Origin: an uncultured delta proteobacterium | GTDB lineage: Bacteria; Desulfobacterota; Desulfobacteria; Desulfobacterales; JAHEIW01 | Assembly: GCA_963706575.1 (NCBI GenBank) | Contig: CAVPNL010000004.1 | Span: forward strand, 32,001 to 96,000 | Length of the DNA stretch: 64,000 nt | Direction: 5' to 3' | Part shown: piece after piece, positions 4,174 through 20,506 of the stretch | How the letters are laid out: every line of letters begins with the position of its first letter | Numbering within the stretch: position 1 is the first letter of the stretch | Made by a program: the position numbers and the translations under genes | The notes under the pieces: generated by a model | The model's database searches: none | Told to the model about the DNA's origin: nothing | Seen by the model: only the letters and a program-made list of their open reading frames with translations

Positions 4174-4605
4174 TTAAGTTATTATTTTGGTAATCTTGGG
4201 CTGGTAGGCATTCTTTTTGGCCATTTTATTGGCACGGGCTTTGATGATAAACAACGCGGAGAAAAAAAAGGCAAATCCCAAAAGGACGGACAACGCAGAG
4301 GGACTAAATGCTATGAAGGGGGCCAGCACCTGTCCGAGTACAGCGCCAGCGATCATCAGGATAATTGGAAATACGTAGATCAAAAAGGTGGCTTTTAACA
4401 GTGAGGCGGTCTCAAAGCTCAAAACGATCCGATCCCCGACGCCGGCACCGGCTGAATTTATGGCCTTAACCTCCATATCCTGGCCGCCTCCTGTGGTGTG
4501 ACACGACCCCCTTGCGGTGCAGCCTTCACATGCGCTGCTCCGAACCGTTTTTACCCAGGCGGTCTCAAAATCGGTTCGCAGAACGACCCCTTGTTCAGTA
4601 GCCAA
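4174..4605 (-). CDS. rseC: SoxR-reducing system RseC / RnfF-like membrane protein
   Basis: N-terminal EQGVV, SACEGC...GSC motif, AGVGDRIV, two C-terminal hydrophobic helices; TTG start at 4605. Confidence 0.85.
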   Translation of the reverse strand: MATEQGVVLRTDFETAWVKTVRSSACEGCTARGSCHTTGGGQDMEVKAINSAGAGVGDRIVLSFETASLLKATFLIYVFPIILMIAGAVLGQVLAPFIAFSPSALSVLLGFAFFFSALFIIKARANKMAKKNAYQPKITKIIT

Positions 4606-4654
4606 TGGCAACCCCGTAAATGAATGGGTTCTTTTGTTTAGAAGCGGATGAAAG

Positions 4655-6763
4655 TTATCCGGAGGCTTCAGTCGATTCTTCCTTCTCATCAGACACTGCG
4701 GTTGCGGTGTGCTCATAGCAGATCAAGCCGCATTGCAGGCACCTTGAGGCTTCTTGCTGCGCCATATCTGCTGAGAAGCCCCTTTCGATCTCACCGCATA
4801 TCGCCAGCTCTTTGCCGCTGCAAATCGGCATGATCTGTCGCTGACTCGCTTGAACCTTTTCCACATGATAGACATTTTGCAGGACCGATTGCGGTGTGAT
4901 CACATGCTCCGCCAAATTAGGCGACAGCCCATGCATCACCTGATGAATAGATGCGGCGGCCCTTCGGCCGGCACCGATTGCTTTGATGGCTGCGCTGTAA
5001 TCCGCCAGCACATCGCCTTCGGCAAACAATCCCCGCTCATCTTTGAAGGCCGTTTGTTTATAGGGTTGAATACCTTCCCAGCGCAGAGACAAATCCGGTG
5101 GTGTTTCCACTTCCGCCCCCTGGTCTTCTTCAGAACCAGCACCTTCCGGTTTTGGCCTGATAAAAACCAATTCTGGAAATCGGCCGGTGGCAAACACCAG
5201 TGTCTGGACAGGAAGGACTGTCCTTTCATCGGTATCGGTTTCAATATATTCCACCTGCTCGAGCCGATCGGCCTCTCCGAAAAGGCGGTTTATGGCTGCA
5301 TTATAAATCACATTCACGCCGGCCAGACCGCGTTTCTGCACCTCATCATCCGAAACAGGACTGTTTTCCCAGCTCTGGCGAAACAAAACAGTAATCGTCT
5401 TGGCTCCCCGCTCTTTGAGAATTTCAGCCGCGTCAAGGGCCAGCTTGCCCCCGCCGGCAATCACAGCATCGGACTCAATCGATAGGGTCTTCGCCTGCCG
5501 GGTACCGAATCGAATGAGATCCACCAGCATATAGGTCCCCGGAATCGGTGATTCAATATCAGCTTTCGCCCCGCGTGCCAAACGGCTGTCCCAGCCTCCG
5601 GAAGCTAAAAAAACCGCATCAAATCCTTCCTGAATCAATGATTTTATGGAAAACTCCCTGCCGAGCGCCTTTTGAGTTTCGATTTTAACCCCCATTTCAA
5701 TGATACCTTCAATATCCCAATCCAGTATCTCCTCGGGCAGCCTATCCTTTGAAATGGCGCTCCGGAGCAATCCACCCAGCTTGGAGGTGGCTTCAAATAC
5801 GGTGGTAGCGTGTCCCAGGCGGGCTGCAAAAAAGGCGGTCGACAAACCTTGCACGCCGCCGCCGACAACTGCGATCCTGCGGTCGGTATCCGGAGCCTTA
5901 TAGGGTAGAATGCGGTTGCCGCTTTCTTTTTCGTAATCAGCGGCGTAGCGTTTTAAAAAATTTATGGCAACCGGCTCATCAATATAATTTCGTCGGCACT
6001 CCAGTTCACAGGGTCGCGGGCAAATCCGGCCGATCACCGCCGGGAAGGGATTGCGTTCCTTGATGACCTGAACGGCGCGATGATTGTTTCCCAGTGAAAT
6101 TTGACGAATGTATTCCCGAATATTAATCCCGGCCGGGCACCCCCGCTGACAGGGGGTCGTGCATTCTTCATTGGTGTACTCCCGGATAATTCTTCGGGTA
6201 ATCGATGACAGGTTGATAATGTGCTTCGGGCACACCCGTTCGCAGGTTCCGCAGCCGGTACATTTATTTTCGCTTACCACCGGCAAACCCTCGGGCCCCA
6301 TGGAAATCGCATCAAACGGACAGGCTTTGGCGCATGTTCCCAGACCCAGGCATCCGATGGTGCAGACTTTCATACCGCCACCCAGCAGCGCCACCGCCCG
6401 GCAGTCATCTAAACCATTATACACATACTTGGTATCCGCTTTGTGGACGCCAAAAAAACAGCCCGGCAAGGCGATGTCCGGTTCAACCGCTTCAATTTTA
6501 ACGCCCATGATGCCGGCAATGGCTTCGGCGACTTCCGACCCGGCGGCCACACATGAGTTGGCTGCCGAAAGACCGGCCACAACGGCTTCGGCATTGGCGC
6601 TGCAACCCGGCAGCCCGCAACCGCCTCAGTTGGCGCCCGGCAATTCTTCCTCAATAGCAATGATCTTAGGATCAACATATACGTAAAAAACTTTGGAGGC
6701 GATGGCCAAAATGATACTGATCGCCAATCCCATGCCGCCCATTAAAATAATTGCTTCAGTCAT
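4655..6763 (-). CDS. Membrane-anchored RnfB-like polyferredoxin fused to a GltD/NfnB-like FAD oxidoreductase; probable selenoprotein (in-frame TGA at 6626-6628), 702 aa if read through
   Basis: Frame from ATG 6763 reads MTEAIILMGGMGLAISIILAIASKVFYVYVDPKIIAIEEELPGAN*GGCGLPGC, matching RnfB LPGANCGGCGxPGC. It continues with CxxGCLGLGTC/CTGCGTC clusters, PCQRGCPAGINI...GRICPRPCE (Fer4_20), GGGVQGL FAD motif and EASRCLQCG. Confidence 0.88.
6596..6628 (-). promoter_or_regulatory. Putative bacterial SECIS element after the in-frame UGA
   Basis: UGA, then 11 nt, then stem GCUGC / loop CGGGUU / GCAGC. The loop starts 16 nt after UGA with G in its second position. Confidence 0.6.
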
Positions 6764-6823
6764 TAGAACCCCTTGGGAGAGTAAATTTAAAGTGAGCTAA
6801 AATGCTTATAGTTGATTTGTTTA

Positions 6824-6912: not shown

Positions 6913-8700
6913 TTAAAATATAGCGTCGAACTTACACTTATCAAAACAGGTCATGCATTTAATGCATTTTTCCTTATCAATAACGGCAATTTCTTTCTTT
7001 TTCCAGATGATGGCATCCACCGGGCAGCTTCGGAAGCAAAGCCCGCATTTGGTGCAGCTTTCCGGCTCAACTTCAAATTTTAACAGCTCGATGCACCGTT
7101 TGGCCGGACATCGTTTCTCATGGACATGCGCCTCATATTCATCCCTGAAATACCGTAAGGTTGAAAGAACCGGATTGGGCCCGGTCTGACCCAGGCCGCA
7201 AAGCGCTGCCTCTTTAATCGTGTCTGAAAGTTCGAAGAGCGTTTCAATATCTTCAGGTCTTCCCCGACCCTCACAGATTTTTTCCAGCAGTTCTAAAAGG
7301 CGCCGCGTCCCCTCCCGGCAGGGTGTGCATTTACCGCAGGATTCGTCCTGGACAAAATCCATAAAAAATCGGGCCATATCGACCATGCAGGTATTATCGT
7401 CCATAACGATTGCGCCGCCGGAACCCATAATGGCACCGACTTTGGCAATTTCCTCATAGTCAATGGGGATATCCAGATGTTCTTCGGGCACGCAACCGCC
7501 CGAAGGCCCACCAAGCTGAACTGCTTTAAACTTTCTCTTTCCCGGGACTCCCCCGCCGATATCATAAATCATCCTTCTCAGGGTGGTTCCCATCGGCACT
7601 TCAACCAACCCGATGTTGTTCACATCTCCGGAAAGCGCAAACACTTTAGTCCCTTTGCTGCTTTCGGTACCGATGCTGGCATACCATTCCCCGCCGTTCA
7701 TGATAATCTGCGCAATATTGGATAGGGTTTCGACATTATTTAAAATCGTCGGCTTTTCCCATAGCCCTTTATGGGCCGGAAACGGCGGCCGCGGCCGCGG
7801 CATGCCGCGTTTGCCCTCAATCGATCGCATCAAGGCGGTCTCTTCACCGCAAACGAACGCACCGGCACCCTGATAAATATCAATGTCGAAGTCGAAGCCG
7901 GTTCCCAGGATATCGGTTCCCAGCAATCCGTAATCGCGGGCCTGTTTGATGGCAATTCCCAATCTTCTGATGGCCAGCGGATATTCTGTTCGCGCGTAAA
8001 TGTACCCCTGATGGGCATTAATTGCACGCGCTGCAATCAGCATGCCTTCCAAAATAGCATGCGGGTCGGATTCCAGTAGGCTTCGATCCATGAAAGCACC
8101 CGGATCACCTTCATCCGCATTGCACAACACATACTTAACCTCACTGGGGCTTTTGCTGGCAAACTCCCATTTCAGCCCGGTGGGAAAGCCCGCCCCGCCG
8201 CGCCCCCTTAAACCCGATGTTTTTACCTCGCCGATAATCTGCTCCGGGCTCATCTCCTGCAAGGCTTTGGCGGCTCCGAAATAACCGTCTCTGGCGATGT
8301 ACTCATCGATGACCTCCGGATCGATGGCACCTTTATTGCGCATCGCCCAAAACATCTGATGCTTGAAAAACGGAATTTCGTTCATACCGGGAATGGTTTC
8401 TTCAGAGGCCGGTTCGACATAAAATAGTTTTTTTACCGGACGGCCTTTGAGAAAATGCTCTTCGACCAGGTGCGGAACGTGTTTAGCCTTCAGCTTTTGG
8501 TAAAAGATCCCTTCAGGCTGAACCAGCATAACCGGCCCGACCGCGCAAAAACCGTTACAGCCGGTCTCTACGATCTTAATTTCATCCGCAAGCCCCTGGC
8601 GCTCCAGCTCTTTTTGAAGTGCTTTCCGAAGATGACCACTCTCATATGCCTGACAGCCGGTACCGCCACACAACATCAACTGGGTTCTTACCTTATTCAT
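6913..8700 (-). CDS. NuoF/HydB-like NADH-binding flavoprotein subunit (bifurcating-type architecture)
   Basis: N-terminal 2Fe-2S thioredoxin-like domain (CGGTGC, GCNGFC), GRGGAGFPTG, NADEGDPGAFMD, GAGAFVCGEET, GGPSGGC, ESCGKCTPCREG, C-terminal 2x[4Fe-4S]. Confidence 0.95.
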   Translation of the reverse strand: MNKVRTQLMLCGGTGCQAYESGHLRKALQKELERQGLADEIKIVETGCNGFCAVGPVMLVQPEGIFYQKLKAKHVPHLVEEHFLKGRPVKKLFYVEPASEETIPGMNEIPFFKHQMFWAMRNKGAIDPEVIDEYIARDGYFGAAKALQEMSPEQIIGEVKTSGLRGRGGAGFPTGLKWEFASKSPSEVKYVLCNADEGDPGAFMDRSLLESDPHAILEGMLIAARAINAHQGYIYARTEYPLAIRRLGIAIKQARDYGLLGTDILGTGFDFDIDIYQGAGAFVCGEETALMRSIEGKRGMPRPRPPFPAHKGLWEKPTILNNVETLSNIAQIIMNGGEWYASIGTESSKGTKVFALSGDVNNIGLVEVPMGTTLRRMIYDIGGGVPGKRKFKAVQLGGPSGGCVPEEHLDIPIDYEEIAKVGAIMGSGGAIVMDDNTCMVDMARFFMDFVQDESCGKCTPCREGTRRLLELLEKICEGRGRPEDIETLFELSDTIKEAALCGLGQTGPNPVLSTLRYFRDEYEAHVHEKRCPAKRCIELLKFEVEPESCTKCGLCFRSCPVDAIIWKKKEIAVIDKEKCIKCMTCFDKCKFDAIF

Positions 8701-8760: not shown

Positions 8761-9114
8761 TTACCATGAGCCGTCCAGCCCGCGAAGCCCATTGACATAA
8801 AGTCGGCCGCTGGCAACAAACAGGGAGTATGCAGTCAGCAGACAGGGCATCTGATAGGATTTGGCCAGTTCGAGGACGGGCGGATCGGGTCTTTTACCCC
8901 TGACAAAAACAACGGCCGTTACCTCGGCAAGTTTGGCAGTCCGCAAAACATGCTCGGTCGTCAGACCGGTGAGCAAGACTGCGTCTTTGGCGACAGCCGA
9001 TAAGACATCTGCCATCAAATCCGCCCCTCCGGCCCCCACGACAGCGCGATCCAGCTGATCTTCACCCGTCAAAATGGTGGCATCTAATATGTTTTGAATC
9101 TCATATAGCTTCAT
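8761..9114 (-). CDS. DRTGG-domain protein
   Basis: GADLMADVL, VLLTGLTT..VLRTA, VVFVRGKRP; clearly paralogous to 15895-16248. Confidence 0.88.
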   Translation of the reverse strand: MKLYEIQNILDATILTGEDQLDRAVVGAGGADLMADVLSAVAKDAVLLTGLTTEHVLRTAKLAEVTAVVFVRGKRPDPPVLELAKSYQMPCLLTAYSLFVASGRLYVNGLRGLDGSW

Positions 9115-9131: not shown

Positions 9132-9626
9132 TTATTCATACTTATCAAGCATTTCAATGACTTTGTCGGCTTTGACATCCCCGTAAGTATCCTGATCCAC
9201 CACCACAACCGGTGCCAGGCCGCAAGCTCCCAGACATCGGACCGCTTCCAGCGTAAAACGCCGATCTTCGGTCGTGTCGCCTTCTGCGATCCGGTATTGG
9301 TTGCCGATACGACTTATGACTTCTTTGATGCCTTTCACATAACAGGCGGTGCCCATGCAGGCCTTGATCTGGTGCCTGCCTTTGGGCGCCAGCGCAAAAA
9401 GCGAGTAAAAGGAAGCCACCCCGAAAACTTCACTGCGCGAAAGATTGAGACCGTCGCTGATATAATCGATAAGCTCAACCGGCAGCCAGCCGACGACATC
9501 CTGGCATTCACGCAAAACACCTATGATCGAACCGGGGATTTCTTTGTTATCACCAATAATTTTCTCAATCTTAGGCCACATTTCATCTGTAATTTCAGGA
9601 TGTTCAGGACGGGCGTCAGGTGTCAT
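9132..9626 (-). CDS. NuoE/HydC-like 2Fe-2S subunit
   Basis: GVASFYSLF, CMGTACYVKG, RCLGACGLAPV. Confidence 0.95.
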   Translation of the reverse strand: MTPDARPEHPEITDEMWPKIEKIIGDNKEIPGSIIGVLRECQDVVGWLPVELIDYISDGLNLSRSEVFGVASFYSLFALAPKGRHQIKACMGTACYVKGIKEVISRIGNQYRIAEGDTTEDRRFTLEAVRCLGACGLAPVVVVDQDTYGDVKADKVIEMLDKYE

Positions 9627-15894: not shown

Positions 15895-16248
15895 ATGAAG
15901 CTATCAGAAATAGTTGAGACCCTGGATGCGACCCTTTTGATCGGCGAGGATAAACTGAATCAAGATATCACCAAATGTGGTGCCAGCGACTTGATGAGCG
16001 ATGTTCTGGCTGCAATTTGTGAAGGCTGTATTTTATTGACCGGCCTGACAACAGTCCAGGTGATACGGACCGCCAGCGTCGCCGGGGTCGGGGCGGTGGC
16101 ATTTGTCAGGGGTAAAAAGCCTCCCCCGGAAGTGGTCGAAATGGCCGGCATTCAGGGGCTGCCGTTAATATCGAGCCCGTATTCCATGTTTGTCTCCTGC
16201 GGCAGGCTGCACGCCTGTAATCTTACGGGGCTTAACGGGCAACGATAA
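15895..16248 (+). CDS. DRTGG-domain protein
   Basis: GASDLMSDVL, ILLTGLTT.QVIRTA, FVRGKKP. Confidence 0.88.
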   Translation: MKLSEIVETLDATLLIGEDKLNQDITKCGASDLMSDVLAAICEGCILLTGLTTVQVIRTASVAGVGAVAFVRGKKPPPEVVEMAGIQGLPLISSPYSMFVSCGRLHACNLTGLNGQR

Positions 16249-16305
16249 CCGATCGCAAATTGCCTCATATCAACGATATAGCGCTACAGTGATTTTCCAG
16301 CGACG

Positions 16306-16746
16306 ATGGTTAAATTCAAAAAAAGCTTTCATATAAAAGGTAGAGATTTTATCCGCGCCGGAGAAGCCGCGATCAACGTGCAAAATCTTCTCAAGTCGAT
16401 GGATTTTGATTCCCGCCTGATTCGGCGCGTTGCCATCTGCGGCTATGAAAGCGAAATGAATGTCGTCATGCACGCCGGCGATGGCTCCTTGAGCCTTGAG
16501 ATCGACACGGACAGGCTGACTCTAGAAATTTCCGATGATGGCCCCGGTATCGAAGATATTGACCTGGCGATGCAGGCCGGTTACTCGACAGCCAACGACG
16601 ATCACCGTGAAATGGGTTTCGGAGCCGGCATGGGCCTGCCGAATATGAAAAAAAATTCAGATCAGATTCACATTGAGTCAAACAATGGCCAGGGAACTGT
16701 GGTTCGAATGATTTTTTTCCTGCCGGAGGGAGGGAAAACAGATTGA
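16306..16746 (+). CDS. RsbT/RsbW-like anti-sigma factor Ser/Thr kinase (HATPase_c)
   Basis: YESEMNVVMHA (N box), DDGPGIEDI, GYSTA, GFGAGMGLPNM, GQGTVV. Confidence 0.9.
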   Translation: MVKFKKSFHIKGRDFIRAGEAAINVQNLLKSMDFDSRLIRRVAICGYESEMNVVMHAGDGSLSLEIDTDRLTLEISDDGPGIEDIDLAMQAGYSTANDDHREMGFGAGMGLPNMKKNSDQIHIESNNGQGTVVRMIFFLPEGGKTD

Positions 16747-18053
16747 GCCCAAAACTAACATCGACTCACTATGTCCGTTTTGACCAAGACCTCTGCGCCG
16801 GCTGTGGCTCGTGTCTGCGGGTCTGCCCCACCAAAGCCATCCGCGTTAAAAAGAAAAAGGCCATCCGCATCGTAGAACAATGCATCGGCTGCGGCGAATG
16901 CATTCGCATCTGCCGCGAAGGCGCCGTCAGTGCGGCCAGTGAAAGCCCCAAAGTGCTGGGAGAAAATCATGTGGCTATCGCCCTGGTTTCACCGGTGCTC
17001 TATGCGCAGTTTCCCGGGGTGATGCCCAAAGACGTGCTCCTGGGACTGCGCCATATGGGCTTTGAGCACACCATCGACATGTCTTATTTTCTTGAAATAT
17101 TCCAATTTGCGACCGAAGAATTCATCAGCCGCAATCGAAAATCCCAAACGGCCCCCTGGCCGCTGATTTCTCCGGTATGCCCGGTGGTGGTGCGGCTCAT
17201 CGCTTTTCGATTTCCCAACCTTTTACCCAATGTGTTGCCGGTGTTGAGGCCGGTGGCCCTAATGGCGCGGGAAGTCAAATCGCGCCTGATACCCGAGTAC
17301 AGCAAAAAAGGAAAAGGCGTTGTCCTGTATTATATCAATCCCTGTCCCACTAAAAAAGAACCGGCACCCTTGCCCCGCCACAAACGAACGGGTCCCGCTG
17401 AAGTCGCTCTGGGAATCAACGATATATATCCCGAACTGGTCAAACATGTGGACCAGATAGAAGCCGCGGACGGTATTCCTTTTTATCAAACCCGTTTTGA
17501 ATATGAAACATGCGCAACCGGCAACGCGTCCATGTGGGGGATGTCCGGTGGAGAAATTGCCGACATGGATATTGAGAAATCTCTGGCGGTTTCCGGCATG
17601 GAGGAAACCATCAGCTATCTGGAAAAAATTGAATTGGGGTTGTTTCAGGATATTGAGTATATCGAGTTTAGGACCTGCCGCGAAGGCTGCCTGGGCGGCG
17701 TGCTGACCGCCATAGATAAATACCTTGCCAAGGGCGCCGTCCAAAAGATGATCAAACGGTTTGGGCTGGGAAGACGCTTGCACCGCGAAAATATTATGCG
17801 GATGTACGATAAAGGAGAATTCCAAAGCGAAAAAAAACCAGCCAAATTGACCAGTCTGTTTGGCACCAATAAAGAAGCCCTGTCGATCGATAGTATGCAG
17901 AAAATTGAGAAAGTTATGGAATTAATCCAGGGCACAGACTGCTCAGCATGTGGCGCACCGGACTGCCGGACTTTTGCTGAAGATGTGGTGCGGGGAAATG
18001 CCGCCCTGAAGGAATGTCTTTTTATCGGCGCGCGCGCAAAAAAAAAGGATTGA
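16743..18053 (+). CDS. [FeFe]-hydrogenase-like protein, group D/sensory type
   Basis: N-terminal 2x[4Fe-4S]; H-cluster-like motifs ISPVCP, INPCPTKK, EFRTCREGCLGG; C-terminal DCSACGAPDC...EC FeS domain. Confidence 0.85.
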   Translation: MSPKLTSTHYVRFDQDLCAGCGSCLRVCPTKAIRVKKKKAIRIVEQCIGCGECIRICREGAVSAASESPKVLGENHVAIALVSPVLYAQFPGVMPKDVLLGLRHMGFEHTIDMSYFLEIFQFATEEFISRNRKSQTAPWPLISPVCPVVVRLIAFRFPNLLPNVLPVLRPVALMAREVKSRLIPEYSKKGKGVVLYYINPCPTKKEPAPLPRHKRTGPAEVALGINDIYPELVKHVDQIEAADGIPFYQTRFEYETCATGNASMWGMSGGEIADMDIEKSLAVSGMEETISYLEKIELGLFQDIEYIEFRTCREGCLGGVLTAIDKYLAKGAVQKMIKRFGLGRRLHRENIMRMYDKGEFQSEKKPAKLTSLFGTNKEALSIDSMQKIEKVMELIQGTDCSACGAPDCRTFAEDVVRGNAALKECLFIGARAKKKD

Positions 18054-18105
18054 GCCGCTGATTGACAATCATACGGCGAAAACAGACGGGAAAGGATTTT
18101 GACGG

Positions 18106-18456
18106 ATGTTGGTAAAAGATCTGGTGGAAAAATTTGACCTATCAATCGTTGCGGGCAAAAATGGGCTTGATCGTGAGGTCCTCGACGGTTACTGCGGCGA
18201 TTTGTTGAGCGAAATAATGGGCAACGCTCCGGCAGGCTGTGTCTGGTTGACGGTTCAGGGGCATCAAAATATTGTCGCGGTGGCCGTGCTGCGTGAAATG
18301 GCCGCCATCCTTATCACCGGTGGCCAAAAGCCGGATGAAGAAACCATCCGGAAGGCGGATCAGGAGGGCATTCCCATTTTATTATGGCCCGAATCATCCT
18401 ATCGCTTGGCCGGCCGCATTTTTAGTGCCGGCGTCGGGAATCTAAGCACCGAATAA
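18106..18456 (+). CDS. DRTGG-domain protein (HPr-kinase N-terminal-like)
   Basis: GYCGDLLSEIMG, VWLTVQGHQNIVAVA. Confidence 0.88.
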   Translation: MLVKDLVEKFDLSIVAGKNGLDREVLDGYCGDLLSEIMGNAPAGCVWLTVQGHQNIVAVAVLREMAAILITGGQKPDEETIRKADQEGIPILLWPESSYRLAGRIFSAGVGNLSTE

Positions 18457-18609
18457 TTTACGGATTCAGCATTTAACAGCACGAATGTTAGTACACCTTA
18501 CAATTTCACCACAAAGTTCACGAAGGGCACAAAGAAAGAATTTACTATTATTAAAAAATCTTTGTGTACTTCGTGGTTGGGTAACCGCTCCATTTTAGGG
18601 AACCAGCCG

Positions 18610-19356
18610 TTGTTAAAAAAATACAAAGCCGACCTCCACATTCACTCCTGCCTTTCACCATGCAGCGATTGGGATATGAGCCCCAAAAAAATTATCGAGA
18701 AAAGCCTTGAACGACAGCTCGATTTAATCGCCATCTGTGACCACAACACCGCCGAAAACGCGGCGGCAACTTCACGGGAGGGAACCCGGCAGGGCATTAC
18801 CGTTTTGCCAGGGATGGAAATCTGTTCCAGAGAAGAAGTGCATCTGGTAACCCTTTTTAAAAAAATTGAAGACGCTCTGAAAATGCAGGAATTTATTTAC
18901 GCCCATCTGCCGGGGGAAAATCAACCGGAAGTATTCGGGCATCAGGTCGTCGCCGATGAGCACGACCAGGTCCTGGGAGAAAACGCCCGCCTGCTGATCG
19001 GTGCCACCCGGCTCAGTTTACATGATATTGTTGCTAAGGCTCATCATCTCGGCGCCATCTGCATCAGTTCCCATGTTGACCGTCCGTCGTACAGTCTGAT
19101 CGGCCAGCTTGGATTCATCCCCGAGGATTTACATTTGGACGCCGTGGAGGTTTCTTATCGGATACCCCTTGATAAAGCCCTGACCGAGGTGCCGGGCATA
19201 AAGGATTATCCCTGTGTGACCGCTTCAGATGCACATTTTTTGAGAGATATCGGCAAGGTGTGGACGGAATTCATCTTAGCCGCCCCCACACTGGAAGAAA
19301 TCCAAATGGCACTGGCCGGAACCGAAGGGCGCAGGATTGTCAACAAGAGCGAATGA
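18610..19356 (+). CDS. PHP-domain phosphoesterase
   Basis: ADLHIHSCLSPC, ICDHN, GMEI..REEVH, SHVDR, SDAH; TTG start 18610. Confidence 0.92.
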   Translation: MLKKYKADLHIHSCLSPCSDWDMSPKKIIEKSLERQLDLIAICDHNTAENAAATSREGTRQGITVLPGMEICSREEVHLVTLFKKIEDALKMQEFIYAHLPGENQPEVFGHQVVADEHDQVLGENARLLIGATRLSLHDIVAKAHHLGAICISSHVDRPSYSLIGQLGFIPEDLHLDAVEVSYRIPLDKALTEVPGIKDYPCVTASDAHFLRDIGKVWTEFILAAPTLEEIQMALAGTEGRRIVNKSE

Positions 19357-19541
19357 TATCCAGTCTTGTGTAGATTGAGACTTAACCACAAAGTTCACAA
19401 AGGACACAAAGGAAATAATTTATAAAAAATTTAATTCATCTGTTTTCACCTTTGTGCTCTTTGTGTCTTTGTGGTGAGTAAAGTCTTCACAATCGATCTG
19501 AAAACAGCAGTTGTAGCACAGCGGAAAGTCTTATGGTATAA

Positions 19542-20099
19542 ATGCGAGAGTTATCTTTACATATTTTAGATGTCGCTGAAAACGGGATTACCGCCGGAGG
19601 GGATTGCATCTGGATCGAGGTTAATGAGGAACGCAAAACGGATCAGTTAAAAATTGTGATTCGCGATAATGGCCGGGGGATGCCTGTCGAAAAACTGGAA
19701 AATATCGACGACCCTTTCATAACAACCCGAACCACACGCAGAGTCGGTCTGGGTCTCTCTCTTTTGGCGGCCGCTGCCGGACGGTGTGAAGGGACAATGC
19801 ATGTAGATAGCAAGCCCGGCAAAGGCACAGAAATAATAGCGACATTCCGTTTCAATCATATCGACCGTGCGCCTCTGGGCGATATGGCCGCGACGATTAC
19901 GACTTTAATCATGGGTAATCCAGGAATCGATTTTGTTTATTCACATCGCATCGATGGTAATGAGTATAGACTGGATACCAGGGAAATCCGGGCAGAGATG
20001 GAAGATCTTTCTCTGTCCGACCCGATAGTAATTCACCATTTGACCGAAACCATCCGTTCTGCACTCGAAAAGCTGTCATCAAATGAGAACGAATCTTGA
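19542..20099 (+). CDS. Stand-alone HATPase_c (histidine-kinase-like ATP-binding) protein
   Basis: MRELSLHILDVAENG, DNGRGM, DPFITTRTTRRVGLGL, GKGT; the type found between hydC and hydD in hyd operons. Confidence 0.9.
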   Translation: MRELSLHILDVAENGITAGGDCIWIEVNEERKTDQLKIVIRDNGRGMPVEKLENIDDPFITTRTTRRVGLGLSLLAAAAGRCEGTMHVDSKPGKGTEIIATFRFNHIDRAPLGDMAATITTLIMGNPGIDFVYSHRIDGNEYRLDTREIRAEMEDLSLSDPIVIHHLTETIRSALEKLSSNENES

Positions 20100-20137
20100 A
20101 CACTGAATAAAGGTCAAATCAATGGAGGAAAAACGAC

Positions 20138-20506
20138 ATGGCAAAGCTGACAATTGATGATCTAAAAAAGATTAAGGAAAAAACCGCCAAAGAAACCTCA
20201 CTGCGCGATGGCCCCGCAAGTATAAAGATCACGGTGCACATGGGCACCTGCGGAATAGCAGCCGGTGCCCGTGATGTCATGAGTGCGCTTATGGAAGAGA
20301 TGGCCGAGGCAGATCGACAGGATATCCGGGTCGTTGCTTCCGGCTGCATGGGGATGTGCAGTAGCGAGCCCAATGTCACCATTGAGGCCCAGGACAGCGA
20401 GCCCATTGTTTATCAGCTGATGGATTCCAACAAAATGCGCCAGGTTTTCAAGCGGCATGTCCTGCTGGGTGAGGTCCAAACCGATTTTGCGCTGGCTAAG
20501 ATGTAA
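20138..20506 (+). CDS. Thioredoxin-like 2Fe-2S ferredoxin (HydD/HndB-like)
   Basis: VHMGTCGIAAGAR, SGCMGMCSSEP; GGAGG RBS. Confidence 0.9.
   Translation: MAKLTIDDLKKIKEKTAKETSLRDGPASIKITVHMGTCGIAAGARDVMSALMEEMAEADRQDIRVVASGCMGMCSSEPNVTIEAQDSEPIVYQLMDSNKMRQVFKRHVLLGEVQTDFALAKM

Follow-up and report, generated by a model that had tools for sequence, protein, structure and literature searches.

The TGA-containing gene and its neighbourhood

The window analysed here is a 64,000-nucleotide stretch of DNA from an uncultured delta proteobacterium. Its minus strand carries, at 4655..6763, a gene that runs from ATG 6763 to a stop at 4655 and comprises 702 codons when an in-frame TGA is read through. 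A ribosome-binding site, AAGGGG (minus strand, 6769..6774), lies 5 nt ahead of the ATG. A mechanical ORF list puts the gene start at GTG 6580, ahead of which no RBS-like sequence was found. The initial annotation had taken ATG 6763, with its AAGGGG site and a transmembrane helix, as the real start, and both the sequence and the hydropathy bear this out: the best 19-residue Kyte-Doolittle mean is 2.49, from residue 4, and a membrane helix is predicted at residues 2-25 (6689..6760), as in the structure model made of P0003, a Cys-containing relative that is 92% identical. This helix is lost if the start is placed at 6580. Among related loci (the best 80 of 293 matches in species-representative genomes), the upstream frame is open for 45 codons in 80/80 and a Met stands at position -45 in 70.

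The TGA (minus strand, 6626..6628) is codon 46, in the context LPGAN-TGA-GGCGLPGC, and likely encodes selenocysteine (Sec). It falls in the FdI / PF04060 Fe-S domain recognized by Pfam at residues 41-72 (6548..6643). Frame and alignment to homologues agree with the earlier claim that codon 46 is the first Cys of the RnfB motif. That motif had been given as CxxCxxxxC; here it extends to C-x2-C-x4-C-x16-C, so that the predicted ligands are four (U46, C49, C54 and C71) rather than three. The other three Cys are invariant in 80/80 loci. The domain aligns to RnfB of 9ERI, 7ZC6 and 8AHX and, with weak homology (E 0.003-0.008), to the corrinoid iron-sulfur proteins (CFeSP) 4DJD and 2H9A. Residues 7-185 match 9ERI_B at E 1.8e-50 and residues 5-186 match 7ZC6_B at E 1.9e-49; in the solved RnfB chains, position 46 falls on the first Cys of PGANCGGCG, with the motif intact. 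In the model made of the Cys relative, confidence is no more than moderate across FdI (block means 64-86) and falls below 50 for residues 90-140.

A 2x[4Fe-4S] ferredoxin domain follows at residues 137-184 (6212..6355; Pfam). With membrane helix, FdI domain and ferredoxin clusters, the protein has the parts of a canonical RnfB and scores 74.5 against TIGR01944, above 68.7. Beyond residue 201, Pfam finds a GltD-type Fer4_20 and Pyr_redox module (residues about 201-684; 4712..6163), whose best match is NfnA/StnC; the match covers the GltD-like part only, starting near residue 99 in the solved chains. Its nucleotide-binding motifs, judged by inspection against canonical forms, a paralogue's among them, are altered: GGGVQG, GGGKLA and FRQ in the window copy versus GGGPAG, GGGNTA and YRR in the paralogue linked to rnf genes. 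Across the gene family the first motif is GGGVQG or GGGVEG and the second is variable. Judging by these motifs, the GltD-like module has probably lost NADPH binding.

The gene lies in a conserved cluster with the order hydC–DRTGG–hydB–TGA gene–rseC, all on the minus strand. HydB/BfuB (6913..8700), a NuoF-like flavoprotein with AFM, GAGAF and GGPSG motifs, is encoded beside the gene in 69/80 loci, the DRTGG-domain protein (8761..9114) in 45, and HydC/BfuC (9132..9626), a NuoE-like [2Fe-2S] protein, in 59. On the other side, an RseC-family membrane protein with three invariant Cys (4174..4716; 63/80 loci) probably has its true start downstream of 4716. The AFM, Phe and GGPSG signatures are reported for bifurcating Bfu enzymes in the available parts of two papers (PMC10482914, PMC12018979).

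The cluster is not part of an rnf operon. None of the 80 loci has rnf genes near the TGA-type gene, within flanks of at most 4 kb on contigs of which some are short, and the window gene is not encoded with rnfCDGEA. A full-length paralogue on another contig, C18, has Cys at the site, is 38% identical over its full length, and lies upstream of a cytochrome c gene and rnfCDGEA, the sole Rnf core found in the genome. The RnfB domain named in the initial annotation stands; the protein itself is a HydBC/RseC-linked long paralogue, not the RnfB of the rnf operon.

Several features of the surroundings are recorded here. The large Cys-type rnfB on C18 (G000:C18:118079-126276, L224) lies upstream of rnfCDGEA, not after rnfA. 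Two cNMP-binding-like genes and the cytochrome c gene lie in between, and one cNMP-binding-like gene ends in a ferredoxin resembling that at window 20138-20506. In the same region rnfD (G000:C18:123479-124457, L224) is split between two frames, probably by an assembly frameshift. At G000:C14:104599-108227, a GltD-like gene comes after a second hydC-hydB pair, and the three may encode a conventional NfnABC/Stn-type complex. On the plus strand of the window, 15895-20506 is a gene cluster in which one product, an Fe-S protein, itself ends in a PF04060-like motif. We take its genes to be those for a DRTGG protein, a kinase-like protein, the Fe-S protein, a DRTGG-like protein, a PHP-like protein, a second kinase-like protein and a thioredoxin-like ferredoxin. 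The cluster resembles regulatory sets adjoining bifurcating hydrogenases; no hydrogenase gene was seen in window positions 1-36000.

Conservation of codon 46 and of the hairpin behind it

Of 293 related loci, the 80 best matches were compared, and codon 46 is either TGA or a Cys codon in every one of these: TGA in 36, TGC in 42 and TGT in 2. Neither TAA nor TAG occurs among them, nor any other residue. The comparison of homologues proposed in the initial annotation, TGA versus TGC/TGT, thus gives 36/80 and 44/80, and the UGA, which falls on a conserved Cys position in homologues, is shared with other genomes. DNA comparison of 79 of the 80 loci (35 with TGA) resolves the TGA loci into 19 clusters at 90% DNA identity. 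The TGA loci are 76-93% identical to the window and average 80% DNA identity. In the window's own family, all 25 genomes were matched; a single TGA is present in 22/24 close-orthologue rows (at least 84% identity), while a distant paralogue has a stop at the site in 0/22 site-covering rows. Across 301 genomes of the order, TGA stands at the site in 17 of the 150 matches listed (410 in all), all within two families. Some genomes carry two TGA-bearing copies of the gene (L012/L038 of G420; G402), reflecting duplication or bin contamination.

With TGA at this codon in 36 of the 80 related loci and Cys in the other 44, the TGA is not an assembly error. Frameshift-like breaks do occur elsewhere in this genome, rnfD in two pieces on C18 being one example, and they would be the ground for suspecting the codon; but the same TGA recurs in 36 loci of other assemblies and in 22 of the 24 close orthologue matches of the family, so that a sequencing or assembly mistake can hardly account for it. 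Contigs of four sequencing runs, all from relatives, showed no difference at 6626-6628 among the rows listed, with 580 further rows outside the listing; RNA coverage likewise does not speak for expression. No run containing half of the words of the stretch was found among those searched. Database protein records have C at the site in all 120 matches listed (of 2627), a set in which a Sec form would appear cut short, or with its U possibly entered as C.

A hairpin, GCUGC-CGGGUU-GCAGC, lies at nucleotides +12..+27 after the TGA (minus strand, 6599..6614), just 3' of the UGA where a SECIS is expected in a bacterial selenoprotein gene. The loop begins after 16 nt, and stem, loop and spacing are as first described. 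Its folding energy is not beyond chance (z = 0.11, 0.39, 0.13 and -0.63 in four sequence windows), and about 7% of Cys codons are followed by folding as good as the hairpin's. A SECIS geometry rule, fixed only once the window had been seen, fits the window and 9/20 known-family Sec sites of the genome; it also fits 19/731 TGA ends of long ORFs and 78/3000 Cys codons.

The case for the hairpin is carried by silent sites. Codons +4..+9 form the hairpin, and their silent-site heterozygosity in 36 TGA sequences (35 loci plus the window; L078 was left out because of its shortness) is 0.027, where the background is 0.46. None of the other windows, 156 in all, gives so low a value. In 44 Cys sequences the same codons give 0.62 versus a background of 0.52. 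The six codons are thus nearly frozen in TGA carriers and vary freely in Cys carriers. All five Watson-Crick pairs are present in 36/36 TGA sequences versus 6/44 Cys sequences, and the sole variation among the former is one loop wobble base. Kinship contributes to this uniformity, but the frozen wobble positions need selection because the TGA loci average so low a DNA identity. The SECIS reading of the initial annotation is borne out by this selection on silent sites, confined to TGA carriers: by its pattern of substitution, the hairpin behaves like a SECIS.

Decoding of the UGA codon

The genome encodes tRNA-Sec (selC), selA, selB and two selD, both of which contain TGA. The complete set asked for in the initial annotation is thus present and, judged from this gene content, the genome decodes Sec. 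A coding-potential scan of the genome returned 87 read-through candidates, the window site included; 34 were fetched and 31 scanned, of which 17 match families with known Sec forms, among them HdrA, FdhA, MvhD, PrdB, HesB and ArsM. Three further loci, L156 (G000:C15:166453), L174 (C4:554795) and L183 (C9:226491), have an in-frame TGA in apparently intact genes with no NCBIfam match at 1e-6; by their appearance they may be OsmC-, DUF3179- and DsrE-type selenoproteins.

The genome also has a tRNA-Pyl at G000:C15, about 118400-122500 (L225), followed by pylS-, pylB-, pylC- and pylD-like genes, labelled from their translations, near methyltransferase and corrinoid genes. From these genes it appears to use both Sec and Pyl, a combination published for the Olavius delta-1 symbiont in the available part of the 2007 Olavius paper.

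Taken together, the evidence makes it very probable that TGA codon 46 is decoded as Sec by way of the hairpin; U46 is then predicted to replace the first of four [4Fe-4S] ligands in a 702-residue membrane-anchored protein. As for the first step, SelB would almost certainly bind the hairpin and insert Sec at codon 46. If the UGA were instead a true stop, the locus would be a conserved split gene or a pseudogene, or would encode a 45-residue membrane peptide and, started separately at GTG 6580, a soluble protein of 641 residues. An in-frame GTG does exist at 6580, and annotation pipelines would start there, but it has no RBS-like sequence, and the break would fall inside a cluster motif with the codons between staying conserved. 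Moreover, the stop would be TGA in 36/36 cases and never TAA or TAG, and the silent sites of the hairpin are frozen in TGA carriers only. This reading is very improbable, and so, to the same degree, is one in which a near-cognate tRNA or a variant genetic code makes the UGA a Cys or Trp codon. Cys is functional at the site in 44/80 relatives; yet TGA is an ordinary stop in this genome, ending 731 long ORFs, a dedicated tRNA-Sec and SelB are present, and the hairpin has SECIS spacing.

A different alternative accepts Sec insertion and denies iron binding, with U46 and C49 forming a UxxC redox or protective pair. The catalogues list the family by its UxxC motif alone, and the FdI cluster is not resolved in the Rnf structures as described in the available parts of PMC9588780 and PMC12174285. 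According to the same parts, the FdI domain is mobile and was proposed as the electron carrier to RnfA/E, the four-Cys motif and the comparison with corrinoid iron-sulfur proteins being the grounds on which its cluster was assigned. Against a non-ligand role, all four invariant Cys/Sec positions coincide with those of the cluster-binding Cys motif in CFeSP and RnfB, and the domain is not thioredoxin-like; we regard such a role as improbable. A [4Fe-4S] cluster also forms on a synthetic peptide whose first Cys is replaced by Sec, and its potential hardly shifts (-476 versus -471 mV), as given in the available part of PMC10946529. With Sec as a ligand, U46, C49, C54 and C71 would in all likelihood, by homology, hold the [4Fe-4S] cluster of a mobile FdI domain. 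Sec-ligand contacts are mostly inferred from Cys homologues, according to the accessible text of a 2026 review (PMC13188914).

Relation to known systems, origin and possible role

For short RnfB, Sec in place of the first FdI-motif Cys is already catalogued, and the site is not a discovery. The initial annotation had presented a hidden selenoprotein; the Sec reading holds, through the conserved TGA, the frozen hairpin and the machinery, and the site itself is already listed as a predicted family. PRK07118 / NF005503 (UxxC) is catalogued as a Sec family on computational prediction alone (PMC12013277), with the deep-Sep representative WP_258165141.1 a short RnfB that has U in GAQ-U-GGCGFAGC (PMC12013277 supplement). 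In the window protein, as in this family, the predicted Sec replaces the first FdI-motif Cys, at an identical position after an N-terminal membrane helix. The two differ in length, however: about 290 aa for the catalogued short RnfB, and 702 aa, with a GltD-like module, for the window protein. The latter is also encoded outside an rnf operon and has a different SECIS stem. Because of its architecture it falls below the NF005503 cut-off (181.7 versus 252 bits, over residues 3-261 only). Its Sec site is thus like that of the catalogued family, in a carrier of another kind.

Three other systems resemble the window protein in part. A large RnfB of about 700 aa, with an RnfB N-terminus and a nucleotide-binding module, belongs to the Rnf2 type of Desulfobacula toluolica Tol2, described for Desulfobacteraceae in the available portion of PMC5109826; as far as that portion goes, the rnf-linked Cys copy on C18 matches it, with canonical motifs. 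The window copy, in contrast, adjoins hydBC and rseC and lacks intact nucleotide-binding motifs in its GltD-like module. NfnABC and StnABC (BfuABC-type; 9N5U, 9BOV, 8OH5) likewise have HydB/HydC-type subunits and a GltD-like module, NfnA/StnC being the best match of the module here, and the BfuB and BfuC genes of the window carry the bifurcation signatures. The window protein departs from this type, however: where StnC has NuoG-like docking parts (from the available sections of PMC10482914 and PMC12018979), it has a membrane-anchored RnfB N-terminus, its NADPH motifs are altered and RseC is added. The RnfB of the solved Rnf complexes (9ERI_B, 7ZC6_B, 8AHX_B) differs in having a Cys ligand, a short form and a place in an rnf operon.

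In the literature searched, no RnfB is named as a selenoprotein, and BSepDB or Haft & Tolstoy 2025 could already cover the long form. No RnfB-type entry was found in the available parts of the 2008 family paper and the 2007 Olavius paper, or in the 2016 family list, and no description of a HydBC-RnfB-RseC arrangement was found. The departure from the catalogue lies in the carrier: a long fusion of RnfB and GltD-like parts, usually mis-called, that is encoded in a HydBC/RseC cluster. Gene callers cut the gene at the TGA, and the membrane anchor and first cluster are lost; in metabolic reconstructions of Desulfobacterales a membrane protein then becomes an apparently soluble 'glutamate synthase beta-like' protein.

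In a quick maximum-likelihood tree that left out codon 46 and the next ten codons, all 37 TGA rows and four Cys rows form one clade with 99% support. The simplest reading of the tree is one Sec gain in the long form followed by four Cys reversions. That the revertants come from genomes that lost Sec use is ruled out by their TGA-containing HdrA (4/4) and SelD (3/4); in the two revertant genomes tested for selB (68% and 87% complete), no match was found. Because four reversions to Cys have occurred in genomes still using Sec, Sec looks exchangeable with Cys here, and dispensable. Together with the nearly unchanged potential of the Sec peptide in the available part of PMC10946529, the reversions suggest that the advantage of Sec is probably modest. 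Natural U/C pairs of about 92% identity within one genus offer a convenient system for the effect of selenium on a [4Fe-4S] shuttle.

A short rnfB in genome G073 also has TGA at the same site, within an rnfCDGEAB operon, and its product passes the NF005503 cut-off at 426.8. The TGA recurs in this short form in 4/5 genomes of its family; the stem there is another one, at almost the same position. A tree constrained to unite all 13 TGA rows was rejected (p-AU 0.0002), under a constraint that also excludes the revertants; when these were included (21/45 rows, after removal of L219, a long branch), the test did not reject a single clade (p-AU 0.156). The tree topology and the different stems favour two origins, and two separate Sec gains, one in short RnfB and one in the long paralogue, are suggested by these comparisons.

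With Sec as a cluster ligand, the FdI domain would shuttle electrons toward membrane subunits, as proposed for Rnf complexes. The chances are about even that the protein serves as an alternative electron-input subunit, linking a HydBC-type NADH/ferredoxin module to a membrane acceptor, with its GltD-like part no longer binding NADPH. The acceptor would most simply be the genome's one RnfAEDG core, whose genes lie apart from this cluster, or alternatively RseC. A fuller scheme, in which hydC-hydB-gene-rseC specifies a bifurcating membrane complex that plugs into Rnf via the Sec-ligated shuttle, and in which Sec was recruited at least twice for a kinetic or oxygen-stability advantage, is speculative and on balance doubtful.

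Among the short Cys-type RnfB relatives, three (L202, L208 and L209) have a strong hairpin at the SECIS position, possibly a relic of lost Sec.
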